Assembly (NCBI GenBank): GCA_051313645.2
Contig: JBNRSN020000006.1
Span: forward strand, 139,562,001-139,626,000
Reading direction: 5' to 3'
DNA length: 64,000 nucleotides
Source: Centroscyllium fabricii
Lineage: Eukaryota
The notes beneath the pieces were generated by a model. It ran no database searches. It was given only the letters and a program-made list of their open reading frames with translations, and was not told the DNA's origin. This document shows positions 52,558-64,000 of the stretch, in pieces. Each line of letters opens with the position of its first letter. Positions within the stretch are counted from its first letter, which is position 1. The position numbers and the translations under genes were made by a program.

Positions 52558-54189
52558 TGTAGGATTCTCAAAATTCCCACATCTCCCACAGTTATTAGTA
52601 TGAAGACCCTAAAGGGGAAAAGGGCTTTTGGAAAAAGGCCACAAGTTTAAACAGAGGCCATGCAGGCCCATGCCAAGGTCAAAGGGCTTGAAACTTGACA
52701 TACCTGGATATAGGAAACCGCCCTTAAAGCCCAGACAGTGGGTGAAGACACAACACACTCCAAACAATCAGGCTCAGGAGATAGCCTCATCTTGCAGACT
52801 TAGAGACAATTAAAACTGTGCATACATAATCACTCACAGTTTAAGCTGATCACCGAGTCAGGAAAGCAGCGATGAAAGTTTGCATAAACAAACAGCCCAA
52901 ACCTCAGAGACATCATTTAACATCTTGCAGGACAATGCACCCAAGACATTAAGGCCATCAAGTAATGAAACAACTGCCCGAAACCAGTTAAGGTGAATGG
53001 CCATAATCTCCTTAACGGGCCCGCCAAACTTTAGGCAATGAACTAGCCCCGATTTGGCATGCAGATAAGAAACATGAAATGAGTATAACTGTAGGCCCAC
53101 CCGTAACTAAGCATGTAAGCAATTGGAAAGCATCATAAGAGCATCGCAACAGCAAGCAATCGGGAAGCATAAGAAGAGCATCGCAACAGCAAGCAATCAG
53201 GAAGCATCACAAGAGCATCGCAACAGCAAGCATTTGATAGGAGAGCAAGAAGGAGGAAAACCCGAGGGTTAAGCAGAGTATGCAGAGGCAACATGAAGGG
53301 CATTCGGGCAGTCGAAAGCTTAATCCTCAAAGAAGACAACAGAACAATTTGTGGGACATCACGATAAAGAGGGCACGGTGGGGCAGGCCCAACCAAAGAC
53401 AACAAGGGCGCAACTGCAGCCCTACACGAGGACCAACCACGATCACCGCGGTAATAAAGAGCCAGGTAACAACCATACCTTTTAGATCCTTATCAGCGTC
53501 AGGTAACGATTTAGGCCCCTGCGACCAAACTGATGCCAAAGACCACCAACCGCAACCCAACCACGATGAAATCGGTGACCAAAACCACTGGAAGAACAAA
53601 ACCCGAAGTTTCCACTCTACAATATAAAGTACCCGGTAAAAACATTACTCTCCCTACTGCTAGCAGAGAAAAGTGGGTACTCGCCCGACAACATCCATAA
53701 CCGTGCCCAACCGCATCAGCGGACTTCAGCCACACTGAAGGACCTTGCGCAGGTTCTAAGAGTGAGACAACATGGAGACAGCAGGCCCCAAAGGGCACAA
53801 AGAGCGAACCCCAAAATGCAACTGGCTTGCTTGGTGAGCATGAATCCCTGGTCTCTCTAGTGCAATTTAGTTAGGTATTGGGGGTAGGACAAGGGTAGGG
53901 GGATCATTAAATGTTATGTTTCCCTCATTGTGCCGTGTTCCCCATTCCTAAAGAATGTACTTTTGAGTGTTTGTATTTATTCCTGTAATTTTAAATAATT
54001 TCTCTCTTTTATAGTTTTGATTTGTGACTCTAAAATAAAAGCAGTTTTTTTGCACCAAACCTGTTGTCTACTCCAATTTTGTATCGCAAACCTGTACCTA
54101 AGTCCAGAGTCTAGAACCTCAGGGGCATGGGAACGATTCGAACTGCTCAGACAGTCAGAGGCAAAGCTGTCCCACTGGTCACCCCTACA
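52558..54189 (+). repeat. Proviral 5' LTR, 1632 bp
   Basis: Terminal inverted repeat TGTAGG...CCTACA; TATAAA 53623, AATAAA 54034; internal 34-37-bp tandem repeats at 53131-53235. Confidence 0.88.
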
Positions 54190-54193
54190 GAAA

Positions 54194-55395
54194 ATGGCGA
54201 CCGCGGCAGGACTCTGGTGACAGGGGTGCGATACAGTAGACTTTGATTTGGAAGAGCAAACTGTGATGGAAGAGTGGATTTCTGATTATGTCTTCAGTAA
54301 GGTGAATATCACTAAGTAGTGGATCACTAATCTGCTAAAGGCTGAGCATCCGGTAGATGCTGCAGCTAAGTGGACAGAAGGGAAGGAGCACAAGAAATCC
54401 ATAGAGAAAGTAATCTAGCTGATGTGCTTCAAGAAACAGGTCCAGCCTTTGGACAGGATTATTGCAGCACAGGCAGCCCAGATACGGGAGTCAGCCCTGG
54501 AAGCCCAAACAAGGGCTCCAGCAGGGCAGAAGTTACTGGTAGGGTTGCAGGCCCTGAACCAGGAACGGGTGCAGTTACTGGGTGAGCATCAGGCCAGGCA
54601 GGAGTATTTGCAGTGTCAGGTCACCGAGGCCAAAAACAATGAGCTGAGGTTGCGGGGAAAGAATGCCCACTTAGCGAGACAAGTAAGAGAGCAGGAGGAG
54701 AAGGTCAAAGACATACAGGCAGCATATAAGATAGTGAGTGCACAAGGGTTTGAAGATGCAGATCATGGCCCCTAACAGAAACAGATAGAAGATCTAAGCC
54801 TTGCTCTCAGGAAGGCAAAAGGCATGGTGTGCCTCATAAAGCTGAGTGCAGCCCAGGTAGACTTTACTGGGAACCTGGGGCAAACGGTTCAAACACCAGT
54901 GATAGTGCCAAGGGACGACCCGGTTGAGGAGCAGGAGGACTCACGACCTCCATCCGTAGCGCCAAGTTTCAGCGAGGTCTGGCAGAAAGGTCGGTTGGAG
55001 TCAGGGGCAGTAGCAGAGGTGGAAAACCCCCCGCAAGAGAGACTGGGACCGGGGCCGATGCACCTGGCCCAGCAGCAAAGATTTGGGCCACCCGCTGCTA
55101 ACGGAGATACGGGACCCCTCCAAAACCAATTCATAGCTCCCCACGGCACCAAACAGCTTAGGAGTATGGTAAGCCACATATCGAAACTTAACATCAATGG
55201 AGACCCCTCGATCCACTTCAGGGAAGTGGACCAGGCAGCAAGCATCAATGAGTGCGATGATGTCGAAAAGGCCAAAATGCTGCTATTCTCCCTGGAGAGT
55301 AAGCTCTACCAGTCCCTCTCTAACCAGAGTAAGGTGGGGCAGCGCGGGTATGTGGAGCTCAGGGAGGACATTCTTGAGGCCATGGGAATGAAGGA
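54194..55395 (+). pseudogene. gag-like gene (coiled-coil N-half, capsid-like C-half), truncated
   Basis: One frame from ATG 54194 through ORFs 54422 and 54824 with four in-frame stops; heptad-rich segment, then DPSIHFREVDQ...EKAKMLLFSL. Confidence 0.75.
54195..54212 (+). promoter_or_regulatory. Primer-binding site, tRNA-Arg(TCG) type
   Basis: TGGCGACCGCGGCAGGAC is complementary to the vertebrate tRNA-Arg(TCG) 3' end as I recall it (...GTCCTGCCGCGGTCG-CCA); 5 nt after the LTR. Confidence 0.85.
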
Positions 55396-57047
55396 GGGAA
55401 TTCCTTCAACTGGCCCATGAGGGTCCAGGAGCAGGGCATCCCGGGCGTGAGACCACCTGGCAGCGGGTGGAACAGGTGGCCGGGACTTAGGGAAGATGTC
55501 CATGAGTTCTGTGCCGGCTGTCTGGTGTGTGCTGCTAACATTCCTGACCCCCACAACAGGAAAGTACCTATGGGACATATCAGGAGGGTAGAGGGACCAT
55601 GGCAGTCGATCCAGGTCGACTACATCGGGCCCCTACCCACCGCCCAGGGAGGCTATAAGTACTGCCTAGTCCTGGTGGATGTGTTCACCAAGTGGGTAGA
55701 AACAGTCCCTTGCCAAACAGCCACAGCTCTGGGTACAGCCAGGATCATGGTCAGGGAGGTGTTCTCGCGATGGGGGCTACCACAGTATGTGGAGTCCGAC
55801 CAAGGGAGTCATTTTACCAGGCAGCTCATGCAGAATACCCTTAAGGTACTCGGCATTGAGGGGAAGTGGCACGTTGCACACAACCCACAGTCCTCAGGGA
55901 TTGTGGAAAGAATGAACAGGACCTTGAAGGAAAGGCTGAGGAAAGAGACGGTGGACTCACCTAAAAAGTGGGGATCCGAGCCAGCTTGTCAAAAAGCATG
56001 GGGTATTCCCCACACGAGCTACTGACTGGCAGAGTTATGCAGACCCCCACCCATGTACTAGCCCCGGTGCTCACAGAAGGACAGCTCAGGGAGGTAAACT
56101 GGGACCGTTTAGCCAGGAACCTATTTGAGCACCTTAAGCAGTTCCATGGGCAGGCAACTGGGAACATGGGAAGGCAGCATCGGAGTAATCGATTGTTGTT
56201 AGAACCCCGAAAACACCACGAATTGGAGATAGGGGACCAGGTCATGGTCTGGAACTTTGCTCGGGTAGGAAGTCCAGAACCGTTGCACATGGGGCCCTAC
56301 AGCATTGTAGATAAGGCAAGCCCCATGGTATATGCCATAAAGATGCCTCGGCGCATCAAATGGTTCCATATTAACCAATGTAAATTGTTTAAGCCTGAGA
56401 GAAGGGAACAGACAGTTAGGGCAAGGTCTGAGGATCAAAGTCCTCAGGCCGCAGCAGGAACAATCTCACAGACTGCGTAGGCAGGTGCAGTGGCTTGTGC
56501 TAAGGGAGAGGCCACCCCACCCACCAATTGGGACACTCTCCCACTCATCTGGGATTCAGGCGAGGCAGGACCTGGGGGCGTAGACCCTCAGCTTGCAGCA
56601 TTGGGCTGCAGAGAGTTGCCCACTCCTGACACAGGTTTAGGAGAGGTGGGAGGTGAGGACAAGGACCCCCAACCTGCAGCATCAGGCTGCGTAGAATTGC
56701 CTGCCCCTAACCCAGGTTTAGGAGAGGTAAAGACGGAGGATAAAAATCCCCAGCCCACGGTAGTGGTAGCTTCACAGACCGCACAAGAGGGGGCAGTGGC
56801 TCATGTTAAAGACCCACCAGCCCGAAAACCCCCACCAGCCACAATCCCTAGAAGGATCCCACGTAGACCACTGCCAAAGAAACCATGGTCACTGGCTCCC
56901 CCGATTAAAAGGGCAGCCTCCCAAGTCAGGGATCGATCTGAGAACAGAGGTCCTCAGCCAGCAGCCGCAGGCTGCGAGGGACCAAAGGTACAGGACAAGG
57001 CAGTCACACCGAAGGAAGTGGTGTGCTGCAGCCTGACTAGGGATTAG
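55396..57047 (+). pseudogene. Integrase with long repetitive C-terminal extension
   Basis: AHEGPGAGHPG...CAGCLVC (HHCC), WQSIQVDYIGPLP, SDQGSHF, SSGIVERMNRTLK, GPY motif; frameshifts near 55480 and 55970. Confidence 0.92.
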
Positions 57048-59294
57048 GTTGGCCGCCCGGAGATGGACGGCATATGTACATTGCAGTTGTAATTTGATTT
57101 GGGATTATTAAGTTTGGGTGTTTTAGTTTAATATTATACGAGGTGATTGGTAGTTTAATTAGAATTGTTTTAAGTGTTTATATTGAGTCGTGGTCTCAAG
57201 ATTCAACTATGCTTGACCCAAGCCAGAGAATTGTCTCGGGACCTGGCTATATGCTCTTGTGTCTCCTTACAGGAAGGATTCCAAAATGAAGGGGGGCATA
57301 CTGCTACTCGCCCTGATAGGGATGAGCACTGCGAGGTGAGGGGATGTGGAGGACTCCCACATTTTTGGGTGCTCAGGTGAGAGAGCAGCAGTTATGGCTG
57401 CTGGGGGCGGTGAATGAGGCGTGGAGGAACTCACCATCTACTCCCATGAGGGAAGATGGCCAGGGTGGCTGGAATCTAACTCCACCTGGTACTCCAGCTA
57501 GACCAGGTTCACCTACGGGGAGGCCTCCCTCTCCTGCCCCAGCATACAGGTTGTGGCCACACAGATAGGGGTCACTGAGGGGAACTGCGTGTGCCTGACC
57601 TGCAGAGGACAGATTCCCCTGGATAGGTTGTGGTGGCTCAGGAAACTGAGCAAAGACATGGGGGACCGTACAGCTGACTGGGAGCGACTGGGGAATGACA
57701 TCTACTGGACGATCACGGGGACCCAAGGGGGAGTTAGTCTGTGCTGGGATAAGTGGTGGGAGTCGGAACAGGGAATTTATGTCTGAATGTGGGGGTCGCA
57801 GAAGGCCTGCCCCATGGGCATATCCATCATCTTTTCCACAGCATGACAGGACAAAGGGGAGGGGGTGGTATGGAATTCCCACCTGCACACCTGCATAGTC
57901 CCAAACTCACCAGCCCCAGTTAAAGCCACTGATCTCGTAGCACGCGCCCGAAAGCCCCTGCCCATGACCCAGACAGCAAGGACACACAGAGGCAGGTGCC
58001 CTGCCTCCACCAAGGGACCAGGGAATGGGCTGGTACTAGTGCCGACCGAAAAGATGCTATACCAGGGGGTACACGATGTGGTAGCTTCTGTGATCCTAAA
58101 CCTGACAGAGGTACACTTACCTGGGTGGTGCCCCAAGGAGACAGAGCAGCTATATTAGGCCCTGTTAAAAGAAATGTCCAGGAAATTCTGCGAGTTCGAT
58201 TTTGCTAACGTAGACCAAATAGAACTGTAAACTACACAAACTGAGGATTTTAGCAAGGCGGGGAGACAAAGAAGGGGAATCTGGAATGATGCTTTCACAG
58301 CATTTAATACAGGATCCTCTGTCATAAACAGTTTGGATGACATAGAATTGCAGACACAAATAAACGGTTTAAAGACACAGTTATGTAAGATATTAATGGA
58401 TGAGAACACAGTGGTAAACTCAGAGCTACACGAGGACCAAGCTGTGACAGTCCATTTATAAGAAATTATTACTGTGCTGGAAAGACATGCCAAAATGGTA
58501 AATGCACTGATATGGGAAGACAGAAATGCTTCGGACCAGGCTGCACAGAATGATGTGTGCATACTGTATGGGGCATGGTTGCTAGTCAAGGGCCGTAGCA
58601 ACCTGGAGGATTTAAAACAGGGTTTAGTCCCCTCCTGGATCAGTAACAAGCTCTTTGCAGCCCTCCATCCGTTCAGTAATTTGCTGAGCCCGTGTCAGCT
58701 CTGTCTAGCCTCTGAAGCTTACCCTGTGCCAGTGGATTGCGGACATTCCAATCACATGATAATGGGAGTAGTAGTAAAGATGCCGGTCATGGGTGGGACA
58801 GCCCGGCCTGCACCGGTATACAGGGTAGAGAACATTGGAGTCATTAAAGGGGGTGCACACGTTCGTTTTGCAGCGGTCCCACATTTTGTCATAAAGTGGG
58901 AGCACACTATGACAGGTATAGACCTCCCCGGTTGCCGGAGCCAGGTTTCACACATAATACTGTGTCCCCAGCACTTGAACTCCTGTTCAAAACCACAGTG
59001 CGGTTTTAAGGCTGCTGGTACAAAACCTACACTGTACCATGGAGGTAATGGCACAAGGCCATGTTCCACCACAGGTAGCATATATAGGAGGTGGGACATA
59101 TTGTGTCACCACAAGTGCGCCGCACTACCAGCTTGGACAGCATAGCTGGTGTCCGGTAAGTGACAGCAGTTTCTGCTTTAAACCCGAGGCAGAAGTTCAA
59201 GTGGCCCAGGAATAGATTGTCCCCATCCCTGACCCCTCCACTATTCATTCACCTCAGTGTAAAAGAGAATTTCACCAATCTGCAAACGTATGTA

Positions 59295-59945
59295 CAGGTT
59301 GAGCACTGGTAATCCGTTAACCGGAAAGCCGGCAGCTTCAGTTCTCCGGCATAAATTGCCCCGACTGCCCTGCGCATGCGCAAAATGGCCACCACGATTG
59401 ATGCTTTGGCGAAAGATCTGCGCATGCGTCGCCGAGTGGCGAGCGCATGCGCAGATCATTCGCAATGGTCTCCGCGGGCCGGGCCAGGGATCTCTCAGCC
59501 GATCGCGGGCCGGGCCTCCCCGAGCCGATCTCGAGCCAGGGGTCTCCGAGCCGATCGCGGGCCGGGCCTCCCTGAGTCTCTCCGAGCCAATCACGGGCCA
59601 GGCCTCCCCGAGTGTCTACGAGCCGATCACGGGCCGGGCCTCCCCGAGTCTCTCCGAGCCGATCACGGGCCGGGGGTCTCCGAGCCGATCGCGGGCCGGG
59701 CCTCCCTGAGTCTCTCCGAGCCGATCGCGGGCCGGGCCTTCCCGAGTCTCTCCGAGCCGACCATGGGCCGGGCCTCCCCAAATGATAAGCGCATGCGCAG
59801 ACCATTCAAAACAGCCGCAGGCCTTTCGTGGCGGCCATTTTCAATGGTCTGCGCATGCGCTCGCCGAAGCTTCAATCGTTGGGGATTTTCACTTTCCCGG
59901 CACGGGCTTGGTCCCGCCCGTGCTGGATTAACGGTGCTCATCCTG
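59295..59945. mobile_element. Tc1/mariner-pogo (Tigger-like) MITE with internal 36-bp tandem array
   Basis: TIRs CAGGTTGAGCAC / GTGCTCATCCTG, TA TSD on both sides, repeats of CCGAGCCGATCGCGGGCCGGGCCTCCC. Confidence 0.88.
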
Positions 59946-60179
59946 TAGCACATTTCGGACATGCAATTTCCCTCCACCCGACCATCTGACCAATTATTAA
60001 AAGCAGTCATCGTAGCTCAAAAACATTTCAACATGTTAGAGCAAAAGACAGTCGTGATAGGGGCCCAGATTTTTGATATTGTAGTTCCACCCTGGTGGGT
60101 CATTGTTGAAAAAATAGAGGTCCCTTCATGGATTAGGATGGCTTCCCACATCCTTGTGGTTTGCCAGCTGGGAATAGTA

Positions 60180-60782
60180 GAGGTATCAGAAACCCCAAAA
60201 ACCGAAAAGCTCTGAAAACCGAAAGTTTTTTCTGGAGTACCGAACATAACCTGACGCGTTATTATTGTGTTGCAGTTGCAGCAGATTTTGCCCGATTGAT
60301 GCCAGTGTTTTTTGGCAGTACTCTACCCTGCGCCTTGGGTTGCGGCTCCTCAGCTATCTCACTCTGATGTAACCGCGAAAAGCCGGTGTGTGCGGGTGGG
60401 CGCGCTCAGCCCGCAGCCGCCGCCAGATCGAAGCCTAATTGGCGGGGCCTGGATCCGGGGAGTGCTTGGCCCTGGCAGCACACGGTGGGGAGGTGGTCGG
60501 CTGACCGATCGATTGGAGCCAAGAGGACAGGCTGCACACAACAGGCAAGTCACCGGCTTACAGTGAGCGGACCTCCCGCCTACCTGTTGCTTACAGGGCG
60601 GCGGCGATGGAGGAGGAGGCGGGCGAAAGCCAAGGGCCCGGTGTGCTGAGGGGATTGAAGGGAGGGCTGTGTTAGGCTGTTTTAATTTCACTGAAATTTC
60701 ATCACAATTCCGAAATCCGAAAAATTCTGAAATCCGAAAAACATCTGGCCCCAAGGGTTTCGGATAAGAGGCTGTATACCTG
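60180..60782. mobile_element. Second TA-targeting non-autonomous DNA transposon (Tc1/mariner-pogo type)
   Basis: TA flanks at 60178-60179 and 60783-60784; right end TTTCGGATAAGAGGCTGTATACCTG, degenerate left end; removal restores the env frame. Confidence 0.75.
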
Positions 60783-61046
60783 TACTGTATCTGTTGTGCA
60801 CTCAGTGCAAGGGAAAAGGTGAAACCTTAGAATTCCGAAACAAAAGGACTTGGAAGAAGCATTACGTTGGTGGAGAAAGATTCACCTATTCGAGTTCTTT
60901 ATCTTTGTTTTTCTGAATAAAGGTTGGTTTTTTTGTGTGTTTAATTTTTCTATAATGAAGGTGTTGGTCTGTATTGGGAATAAAGATGTATTACCAAGTA
61001 GTGTGGGTGTGTTGGAACCCCTCCATGCTTGGATGTGTGTATATAA

Positions 61047-62843
61047 GAACATAAGAACATAAGAACATAAGAAATAGGAGCAGGAGTAGGCCAATCGGCC
61101 CCTCGAGCCTGCTCCGCCATTCAATAAGATCATGGCTGATCTGATCCCAACCTCAATTTTATATTAACTCTCCACCCCACCCAAACACATGTGATCACCC
61201 GGGAGAGGCGAAAAACCAGATAAAAAACCCAGTAGCCAATTTGGGAGAAAAAATCTGGGAAATTCCTCTCCGACCCATCTAGGCGATCGAAAACTGGTCC
61301 AGGAGATCACATGTCCGATCTGAACCTATCCTCACGTCCACTTGCCTGCCCGCTCACCATAACCCCTAATTCCCTTTTCTTCCAGGAAACTGTCTATCTC
61401 TGTTTTAAAATTATTCAAAGTAGTAGCCTCCACAGCTCTCTGGGGCAGCAAATTCCACAGCCCCACCACCCTCTGGCTGAAGAAATTCCTCCTCATCTCC
61501 GTCCTAAATGAGTCACCCCTTATCCTTAGACTATGATCCCTGGTTCTGGACTCTCCTACCATCGGGAACATTCTTCCTGCATCAAGTCTGTCCAGACCAT
61601 TTAGAATTTTATACGTTTCGATGAGATCCCCTCTCAATCTTCTAAACTCCAGAGAGTACAAACCCAGTCTACCCAGTCTCTCCCCATACGTCAATCCTGC
61701 CATCCCAGGTATCAGCCTGGTGAATCTCCTCTGCACTCCCTCCATTGCTAGAACGTCCTTCCTTAGATAAGGACACCAAAACTGCACACAGTACTCAAGG
61801 CTTGGTCTCACCAAGGCCCTGTACAACTGCAGCAAGACCTCCCTATTCCTGTACTCAAAACCTCTCGCTATGAAGGCCAACATACCATTTGCCTTCTTAA
61901 CCGCCTGCTGCACCTGCATGCTCACCCTTAGCGACCGGTGCACCAGGACACCCAGGTCTCGTTGTACTTCCCTTTCTCCTAATCTATTGCCATTCAGATA
62001 ATAGTCGGCATTTCTATTTTTTCCCCCAAAGTGGATAACCTCACATTTATCCACATTATACTTCATCTGCCATGTATCAGCCCACTCGCCCAACCTGTCC
62101 AAATCATCCTGGAGCATCCTGCTATCCTTCTCGCAGCACACACGCCCTCCCAGCTTTGTGTCATCTGCAAACTTGTAGACATTACATTTAGTTCCCTTTT
62201 CTAAATCATTAATGTACATTGTGAATAGCTGGGGTCCCAGGACTGAGCCCTGTGGTACCCCACTAGTCACTGCCCGCCACCCAGAAAAAGACCCATTTAC
62301 TCCCACTCTCTGCTTTCTGTCTGCCAACCAATTTTCAATCCAAGTCAATACCTTGCCCCCAATCCCATGTGCCTTAACTTTAAATGCTAGTCTCTTCTGC
62401 GGGACCTTGTCGAATGCCTTCTGAAAGTCCAAGTATATCACATCTACTGGTTCTCCCTGATCAATTTTCCCAGTTAAATCCTCAAAAAATTCCAGCAGAT
62501 TAGTCAAGCATGATTTACCTTTTGTAAATCCATGTTGACTTTGTCCAATCCTGCCGCTACTTTTCAAGTGCTCAGTGATTTCATCCTTTATTATGGACTC
62601 CAGCATCTTTCCCACTACCGATGTCAGGCTTACTGGTCTGTAATTTCCTGCTTTCTCCCTACCACCCTTCTTGAATAGTGGGGTAACATTTGCCACCCTC
62701 CAATCCATGGGTACAGTTCCAGATTCCATCGATTGCTGGAAGATAATCAGCAATGCATCTACTATTTCCAGGGCTACCTCCCTAAGTACCCTAGAATGCA
62801 GACCATCAGGCCCCGGGGATTTATCGGCCCTCAATCCCTTCAA
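61047..62843 (-). mobile_element. Young 5'-truncated CR1 LINE with open RT domain
   Basis: Uninterrupted ORF (KSPGPDG, NYRPVSLTS, YLDFQKAFD, GVPQGSVLGP, FADD), TTCTTATG tail, TSD TATATAA (61040-61046, 62844-62850). Confidence 0.95.
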
Positions 62844-63016
62844 TATATAACTGTATTGCACCTATGTTTTGCTTATGTACACTACATTTTAAAGAATGGG
62901 GAATGTATGTGCCATAGGATTTTTGGATAGGTAATTACAGGAGAAGATTGACTATGGGGGTCAGGAATTTTGCTCACCTTTCACAAATATGATACTTGAA
63001 GTAAGTTTCAGTATCA

Positions 63017-63051
63017 ATGGGGGAGTGTAGGATTCTCAAAATTCCCACATC
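63017..63051 (+). repeat. Proviral PPT and first 26 bp of the 3' LTR
   Basis: GGGGGAG followed by an exact match to 52558-52583. Confidence 0.88.
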
Positions 63052-64000
63052 ATAGAATCATAGAATCATAGAAATTTTACAGTGCGGATAAGGGCCATTC
63101 GGCCCATCCAGTCCACACCGGCCCAGGAAACTCCTCGCTATACTAACCCCATTTGCCCGCACCTGGCCCATAACCCTGTATGTTATGGTCCTTCATGTGC
63201 TGGTCCAAATATTTTTTAAATGTTGCGATGGTTTCTGTTTCCACCACCCTTACAGGCAGGGAGTTCCAGACTTCCACCACCCTCTGGGTAAAGAAATTTC
63301 TCCTTACCTCCCCCCTAAACCTCCCTCCCCTAATCTTGAATCTATGTCCCCTGGTACTTGACTCTCCCACCAATGGAAACAATGCCCCTTTATCTACCCT
63401 ATCGTGTCCTCTCATGATCTTGTAGACCTCAATCATGTCACCCCTCCACCTTCTCTTCTCTAGGGCAAATAACCCCAGCCTGTCCAGCCTCTCTTCGTAG
63501 CATAAGTCCCCCAGACCAGGTATCATCCTGGTAAACCTTCTCTGCACCCTTTCCAGGGCAACCACGTCCTTCCTGAATTGCGGTGACCAGAACTGCACAC
63601 AGTACTCCAGCTGGGGTCTCACCAGTGTATTATACAAGTTTAACATTACCTCCCTACTTTTGTATACTATGCCCTGGTTAATAAAGGCCAGAATTCCGTA
63701 TGCCTTCTTAACCACCTTGTTAACGTGTCCAGCAACCTTCAGGGAGCTGTGCACCTGTACCCCTAGGTCCCTCTGTTCCTCGGTCCTATTTAACGTTTTG
63801 TTGTTCATGGTATATTCCCTTACCCCATTTGGTCTACCGAATTGAATGACCTCGCATTTCTCTGGGTTGAACTCCATTTGCCATTTTTCTGCCCAATTAA
63901 CCATTAGATCTATATCCTCCTGAAGCCCCTTACTATCCTCATCGTTGTTTATCACCCTTCCGATTTTCGTATCATCAGCGAATTTGCTGATCATACCCCC
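63052..64000 (-). mobile_element. CR1 LINE inserted into the proviral 3' LTR (runs off the window)
   Basis: ISKFADDTKIG...LVRPQLEYCVQFW...WNSLP ORF and (ATTCTATG)n tail. Confidence 0.93.

Follow-up and report, generated by a model that had tools for sequence, protein, structure and literature searches.

A degraded provirus of a likely shark retrovirus family that probably combines a canonical retroviral reverse transcriptase with a predicted class Ib envelope

To which lineage does a provirus belong when its envelope protein (Env) resembles that of lokiretroviruses (Loki)? The question is raised by a 64,000-nucleotide stretch of Centroscyllium fabricii DNA (contig JBNRSN020000006.1; hereafter the window), in which a provirus begins at position 52558. 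A preliminary description of the sequence took it for a chondrichthyan lokiretrovirus or else an env-bearing Gypsy-like element with a related F protein. The provirus is genuine. As that description held, paired long terminal repeat (LTR) starts, a primer-binding site (PBS), a polypurine tract (PPT), gag, integrase (IN), and env are all present; the LTR starts read TGTAGG at 52558 and 63026, with 28 nt identical, and the IN region matches the Pfam families rve (E = 2.8e-14), Integrase_H2C2 (E = 2.7e-4), and SH3_Tf2-1 (E = 4.5e-4). We consider it probable that the element is a defunct provirus, carrying a deletion, from a high-copy family of endogenous retroviruses (ERVs), likely of sharks, whose reverse transcriptase (RT) falls with canonical retroviruses, probably in the clade Huo related to snakehead retrovirus (SnRV), and whose Env is a predicted paramyxovirus/foamy-type class Ib fusion protein.

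Placement by reverse transcriptase and integrase

First-look searches of the 7.2-Gb genome returned 3,665 candidates for the Env query, 4,893 for RT, and 5,624 for the LTR, figures that are not copy numbers; 40 of each were scored. Copies that retain RT, for which the preliminary description had proposed a search, were found: sister copies, of which six were scanned in three frames each (L024 and L040 show the dual RNase H), keep a CCHC knuckle, protease (PR), RT with a YVDD motif, a degenerate RT_RNaseH domain (the tether), a second RNase_H domain (RH), and IN. With these copies included, the element has the canonical Retroviridae layout LTR-PBS-gag-pro-pol-env-PPT-LTR and the order RT-tether-RH-IN. 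By eye, the sister-copy motifs LDISNGFWSI and LPQGFHNSPSIFHQ agree with SnRV in the RT alignment of Wang and Han's supplement, where the Loki rows instead read xPFG[YL]xNSPAxF.

Reference rows for phylogenetic analysis comprised SnRV (L098, whose 10,688 nt equal the published SnRV length and whose RT reads as the SnRV row), two closely related Loki elements (L114 and L115, the only ones, with RTs that read as Loki rows and an F-like env), 16 foamy-type genomes, and gamma-, epsilon-, and Gypsy-type rows, groups being assigned from motifs and layout (for Gypsy, an MPFG-type motif). L114 and L115, both of lokiretrovirus type, are nearly complete and lie in metagenome contigs that presumably represent host DNA. 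In the RT-core tree (53 of 79 rows, after removal of near-duplicate and partial rows), Loki lay outside a 43-row clade containing the query (support 96/88), while the query grouped with frog and coelacanth ERVs (86/87) and was split from eight Gypsy-type rows at 100/99; the approximately unbiased (AU) test gave P = 0.044 for query plus Loki. Trees of RT plus tether, a quick tree of 36 rows and one of 30 rows after removal of six, again left Loki outside the clade holding the query (SH-like approximate likelihood ratio test [SH-aLRT] = 96 and 99, respectively). AU tests on RT plus tether returned P = 0.0004 for query plus Loki, P = 0.0009 for the query's whole grade plus Loki, and P = 0.15 for that grade plus SnRV. 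In the IN tree (37 rows and 169 columns, without the host CGIN1 row), the window IN had no supported grouping, query plus Loki gave an AU P value of 0.0375, and Loki was placed with frog and coelacanth relatives of the window's family (90/97).

The nearest named Pol proteins are from frog and coelacanth (49 to 51% identity), and RT identity is 43 to 52% to SnRV-like rows versus 27 to 31% to Gypsy-type rows. With RT inside the canonical retroviruses in three trees and the pairing of query and Loki rejected, the proposed lokiretrovirus membership does not stand. The safe statement is that the window's family is a canonical retrovirus in a deep frog/coelacanth/SnRV grade; clade Huo is probably its home.

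Envelope sequence, predicted fold, and competing readings

From its ATG at 57286, env stays in a single frame over about 1.75 kb, to ~59030, broken by point stops as previously described. The eight in-frame stops lie at 57337, 57415, 57499, 57784, 57844, 58156, 58228, and 58459; positions 57286, 57553, 57865, and 58474, given earlier with the stops, are in-frame anchors and not stops. Env reads as a signal-peptide-like start, an N-terminal domain of ~230 amino acids (aa), an F2-like strand and helix, RQRR (58264-58275), a fusion peptide, a long heptad, beta and Cys-rich domains, a second heptad, and a transmembrane (TM) segment. The RQRR followed by GIWNDAFTAFNTGSSVINSLD, VVKMPV, VYRVENIG, and Cys block noted earlier are all there, and CX6CC, a hallmark of gamma-type Env along with an ISD in TM and CXXC in SU, is absent from all five Env proteins checked.

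A 22-row profile of the Env family aligned collinearly in hhalign with the Envs of Loki (96.6 to 97.0, with E = 1.1e-10 at 97.0), SnRV (90.3, E = 1.5e-6, 287 columns), and foamy virus (69.1, E = 4.4e-5), and did not match gamma-type Env (3.1, E = 0.014, against 12 CX6CC-bearing Envs). When the Env hidden Markov model was run against 137 viral open reading frames (ORFs) and 685 shuffles, its top 17 matches were 2 Loki, 14 foamy, and 1 SnRV Env (best foamy match, E = 2e-5; best shuffle, E = 1.7). With thin profiles, hhalign detected no direct match of Loki, foamy, and SnRV Env to one another, and SnRV Env was not significant with the narrow family profile A1 and significant with the wider A4. 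A single-protein scan of viral contigs found nothing, and PDB sequence searches gave nothing significant. In the ESM Atlas, Env has clusters of Gypsy env, Baculo_F, and Fusion_gly as neighbours; its recognition score falls under the reliability mark.

The fold was approached through P0105, an intact relative with 23% identity to the window Env and a match to the family profile at E = 2.5e-38. Its model (mean pLDDT, 60.7) has a better folded core than that of the window Env and contains an F-like structural core. Ranks 1 to 9 among 48,161 chains (VIA) were the fusion proteins of Newcastle disease virus (NDV), Ghana virus, measles virus, parainfluenza virus 5 (PIV5), foamy virus, human PIV3 (hPIV3), foamy virus again, human metapneumovirus (hMPV), and respiratory syncytial virus (RSV), with Z scores from 9.0 to 6.7. 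Against BFVD, the P0105 model had 57 matches at E ≤ 0.001 (best, 4e-14); among the 50 matches listed, the named ones were viral fusion or envelope glycoproteins, and several were unnamed or uncharacterised. The window Env model, built from a reading with X, had one BFVD match at this threshold. The structural check suggested in the preliminary description finds an F-like core in P0105; the window copy's own model is weak (see below). The N-terminal 180 to 235 residues are without a confident model in either fold. We predict that the Env of the window's family is F-type (class Ib), in keeping with the earlier view of an F-type Env resembling that of Loki.

Both models had as their best BFVD match a fish filovirus glycoprotein (Wenling thamnaconus; E = 4e-14 for P0105 and 5e-4 for the window). 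Walleye epsilonretrovirus Envs also match the F-type fold in BFVD (walleye epidermal hyperplasia virus 1 [WEHV-1], E = 1.3e-9; walleye dermal sarcoma virus [WDSV], E = 2.4e-7).

The chondrichthyan connection of the preliminary description was supported by the host range of the Env relatives. The Env proteins closest to that of the window are from sawshark (61 to 75%) and skate; the Env profile had 39 protein-library matches, and the hosts of the 10 checked included 7 sharks and 2 frogs. A whale-shark gene model holds Pol and Env pieces of the window's family. Apparently complete, unbroken F-type Env ORFs were seen in P0105 (annotated as Ig-like), P0115, and P0124, with bamboo shark and a spadefoot-type frog among the hosts; such intact ORFs (e.g., P0105 and P0115) could be recent proviruses or viruses, or host-captured genes.

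Other histories might account for an Env of this kind. A canonical clade-Huo retrovirus may have taken env, perhaps an IN-env block, from a lokiretrovirus, or given it, making the Loki link a lateral transfer. Loki Env is the closest Env, the IN tree joins Loki to the frog and coelacanth relatives, and both groups infect aquatic vertebrates; against such recombination, the same Env family occurs in sharks, skate, and frogs and is also linked to the Envs of SnRV and foamy viruses, Loki Env is just ~15% identical, and env-less Odin elements are reported as sister to Loki in IN as well. We hold this exchange to be possible, if unlikely. Much less probable is that the family is itself a chondrichthyan lokiretrovirus. 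Dual RNase H, an RXKR-type cleavage site, a Loki-like Env, and Loki-like IN scores favour membership, but the RT motifs, the three trees, and the AU tests on RT plus tether oppose it; furthermore, Wang and Han score Loki in 0 of 3 Chondrichthyes genomes, with whale shark screened, though the whale-shark gene model carries pieces of the window's family. To an env-bearing, errantivirus-like Ty3/Gypsy element with a baculovirus-F-type envelope we give almost no credence: Gypsy env and Baculo_F are the leading Atlas clusters (0.95), a baculovirus F stands at rank 2 in BFVD, and the target duplication is of 4 nt, but the Gypsy-like alternative fails on the tether plus second RNase H and on the position and identity of RT given above.

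Several observations weigh against a canonical retrovirus with a class Ib Env, the reading that we prefer. A clade of SnRV with the query was not recovered with support, only not rejected, and SnRV is a long branch that was never a supported sister. BLAST with RT plus tether ties Loki with SnRV (270 bits each), BLAST with IN ranks Loki above SnRV (145 versus 107 bits), and the trees are without Odin, alpha, beta, delta, lenti, or fish foamy-like rows. The Env profile scores Loki Env above SnRV Env, which in the HMMER search reached E = 0.99, barely above the shuffles; a Pfam search of Env returned Fusion_gly at best (E = 0.079) and no families for P0001 or P0070. The window Env model has a pLDDT of 53.5 and a pTM of 0.41, and Foldseek found no PDB match for it at E ≤ 0.001 (foamy Env ranked 7, E = 0.69). 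P0105 is linked to the family through an Env of 23% identity, its own pol not having been seen. Its top VIA matches have root mean square deviations of 14 to 34 Å, which implies that domains are displaced in the model, and Z scores below 8 can be unspecific.

Proviral anatomy, age, and spread of the family

The features of the provirus are collected in Table 1. The preliminary description had it occupy 52558 to 63051; its start is correct, and its end falls ~2.2 kb past the window, at L061:3172. The two TA-flanked insertions in env that had been marked for removal are real: sister copies L046, L048, and L050 are uninterrupted at both sites, and L048 and L050 also at the 61047-62843 site of a long interspersed nuclear element (LINE) fragment that we take to be CR1-like. 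The gag remnant has no Pfam match and is assigned from its position and from the CCHC knuckle 3' of it in sister copies.

Table 1. Features of the provirus, in window coordinates
Feature	Position	Strand	Remarks
5' LTR	52558..54189	+	1,632 nt; TGTAGG...CCTACA inverted pair
PBS	54195..54214	+	Complementary to 3' end of tRNA-Arg(TCG)
gag remnant	54194..55393	+	Coiled coil and capsid-position region; 4 in-frame stops; nucleocapsid (NC) end deleted
Deletion junction	55394..55406	+	13-nt imperfect microhomology; ~3.2 kb gone (NC, PR, RT, tether, RNase H)
Integrase	55394..56480	+	Frameshifted; partial zinc-binding domain, core, SH3-like C-terminus
Pro-rich stretch 3' of integrase	56481..57047	+	With 81-nt tandem repeat
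env, F-type (predicted)	57286..60820	+	Damaged by stops, frameshift near 59030, two insertions
Inserted non-autonomous DNA element	59295..59947	.	TA-flanked, short inverted ends; probably Tc1/mariner-like
Second inserted element	60180..60784	.	TA-flanked; within TM-coding stretch of env
LINE RT fragment	61047..62843	-	In 3' untranslated region; short target duplication
PPT	63016..63025	+	
3' LTR start	63026..63051	+	26 nt in window; remainder past window at L061:1580-3172
Second LINE fragment	63052..64000	-	Splits 3' LTR; runs on to ~L061:1579

The best non-self match of the 5' LTR is its own 3' LTR (87%, versus ≤84% for other full-length LTRs; 40 scored candidates). The Kimura two-parameter distance between the two is 0.083 (1,547 sites), equivalent to roughly 19 to 190 million years at the rates quoted by Han (2.2e-9 and 2.2e-10); given the span between these rates, the age of the provirus is poorly fixed. 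A 37-nt tandem repeat in the 5' LTR (53117-53232, 3.1 copies) has one unit fewer in the 3' LTR. The proviral flanks, AAAG and AAAT, are consistent with a target duplication of 4 nt in which one position has changed. Across 17 full-length LTR matches, 7 carry an exact 4-nt duplication, another 3 carry one with a single mismatch, and a length of 5 to 7 nt fits in no case. Comparison of the PBS with tRNA-Arg(TCG) gave 90 genomic matches against 0 for the reversed control, and ARAGORN, applied to four PBS-matching loci, called one tRNA-Arg (tcg), one undetermined, and two none. Contigs C811 and C922 hold dozens of tRNA-Arg(TCG) 3'-end matches, many ~1.9 kb apart, which suggests tandem tRNA gene arrays.

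The gag-integrase junction of the window copy is spanned by that copy alone among 40 scored of 2373 candidates. In a second, different deletion class, a short microhomology marks the in-frame fusion of the RT palm, at its end, with the tail that follows integrase (e.g., L039:6802-6813); this class is without tether, RNase H, and IN and keeps gag, PR, most of RT, and env. All 40 candidates scored, out of 823, span its junction, and the class makes up 8 of the 20 env-match copies examined. The env tree does not bring these copies together (2 changes for the 8 rows, a count as low arising in 121 of 500 shuffles), so env gives no evidence of a single origin. L023 and L026 represent more distant subfamilies (~70 to 78% DNA identity) adjoining or recombined with env of the window's family. 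In 11 of 11 copies examined, gag ends at an in-frame UGA, followed in 9 of them by CUA; UGA-CUA is a context that favours readthrough.

Selection was gauged as pN/pS from variants per codon column, with CpG sites excluded, in samples of 16 to 23 copies picked by similarity to the queries. Variants found in at least three copies gave 0.20 for the env core (41 synonymous, 23 nonsynonymous; 23 copies), 0.22 for the env N terminus, and 0.19 for RT (20 copies), whereas singletons were near neutral (env, 0.84; RT, 0.89). The env tree is star-like. Constrained variants common to several copies indicate purifying selection and, together with this tree shape, fit a burst in which reinfecting particles that depended on Env produced new copies, which then decayed; the family likely spread in such a burst.

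A life cycle can be proposed on these grounds, of which the primer site, the order of the genes, the in-frame stop, the length of the target duplication, the furin-type site, and, in a relative, the fold class were observed. Reverse transcription would be primed by tRNA-Arg(UCG), Gag-Pol would likely arise by readthrough of the in-frame UGA, usually with CUA next, and, from known retrovirus biology, the env mRNA would be spliced. Integrase left 4-nt target duplications. Env was likely cut by furin at RQRR, which would leave an F1-like subunit with an exposed fusion peptide; as in class I fusion generally, the two heptads of this subunit would fold back into a six-helix bundle. Receptor binding likely falls to the extra N-terminal domain. 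The burst was likely accompanied by the defective class that lost RNase H and integrase and kept env, and the window copy afterwards lost its enzyme genes and gained four insertions.

Envelope ancestry and comparison with known systems

The corrected, non-Loki reading bears directly on the origin of retroviral Env. Wang and Han leave four scenarios open for that origin and report no detectable similarity between Loki and canonical Env; foamy Env has since been shown to be F-like (PMC11468914). In the literature searched (subscription papers not covered), we found no description of F-type Env in SnRV-related or shark ERVs or of its sequence link to Loki Env. With a non-foamy canonical family whose Env is linked to those of Loki, foamy virus, and SnRV, the origin question becomes testable by setting a tree of the F core against the RT tree. 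Our results suggest that the F-type envelope is far more widespread among early retroviruses than described so far. We also raise, at slightly less than even odds, the proposal that an F-type fusogen was the ancestral envelope of all retroviruses, the shark/frog Env family being a sequence-level bridge that joins Loki, foamy, and snakehead Env, and the walleye epsilonretrovirus Envs sharing the fold. If this is true, gamma- and beta-type Envs would be later replacements, which would overturn the view of Loki and canonical Env as separate in origin. Screens seeded with gamma- and beta-type Env alone would pass over a large class of Envs in fish and amphibians.

Among described retroviruses, SnRV and clade Huo share with the window's family the RT motifs (43% identity over 262 aa), an in-frame stop between gag and pol, and a Gag with coiled coil and single CCHC; SnRV further shares a homologous Env core without CX6CC and a PBS that we take to be Arg-type. 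Unlike SnRV, the window element has a far longer LTR (1.6 kb), an Env of ~750 aa (1,134 aa in SnRV) with another N-terminal domain and a short tail, and no 3' accessory ORF that we could see in its family, which is not resolved as the sister of SnRV. SnRV-like ERVs are reported in elephant shark (CmiERV lineage I) and coelacanth (PMC6001957, PMC4422223, and PMC4977317).

With lokiretroviruses (PMC7947760 and PMC9040795), the family shares an F-like Env with an RXKR-type site (here RQRR), which is its best Env match, and similar integrase scores. The dual RNase H (tether plus RH) of the sister copies, deleted from the window copy, is common to Loki and all retroviruses. The family differs from Loki in an RT that lies outside Loki and in its CCHC knuckle, and from the two Loki Envs in an N-terminal extension of ~230 aa. 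No separate ORF like the smc ORF, optional in Loki, was noticed in the window's family, although no search aimed at smc was made.

With foamy virus Env (PMC11468914), the predicted class Ib F-like core is shared, through a weak sequence link and a structural link (Z = 7.6). The extra domain is N terminal to the F2-like part and not between the subunits as in foamy Env, there is no long leader peptide, and RT is 31 to 35% identical to that of foamy viruses and on a separate branch. Paramyxovirus and pneumovirus F proteins (PF00523) have the same order of F2 strand and helix, furin site, fusion peptide, first heptad (HRA), beta domains, second heptad (HRB), and TM segment; they differ in their 9 to 12% identity, whereas the window's Env has the extra N-terminal domain and is encoded by a retrovirus without a separate attachment gene. 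By analogy with these systems, the family likely enters cells as Loki or a foamy virus would, yet by its RT it is neither.

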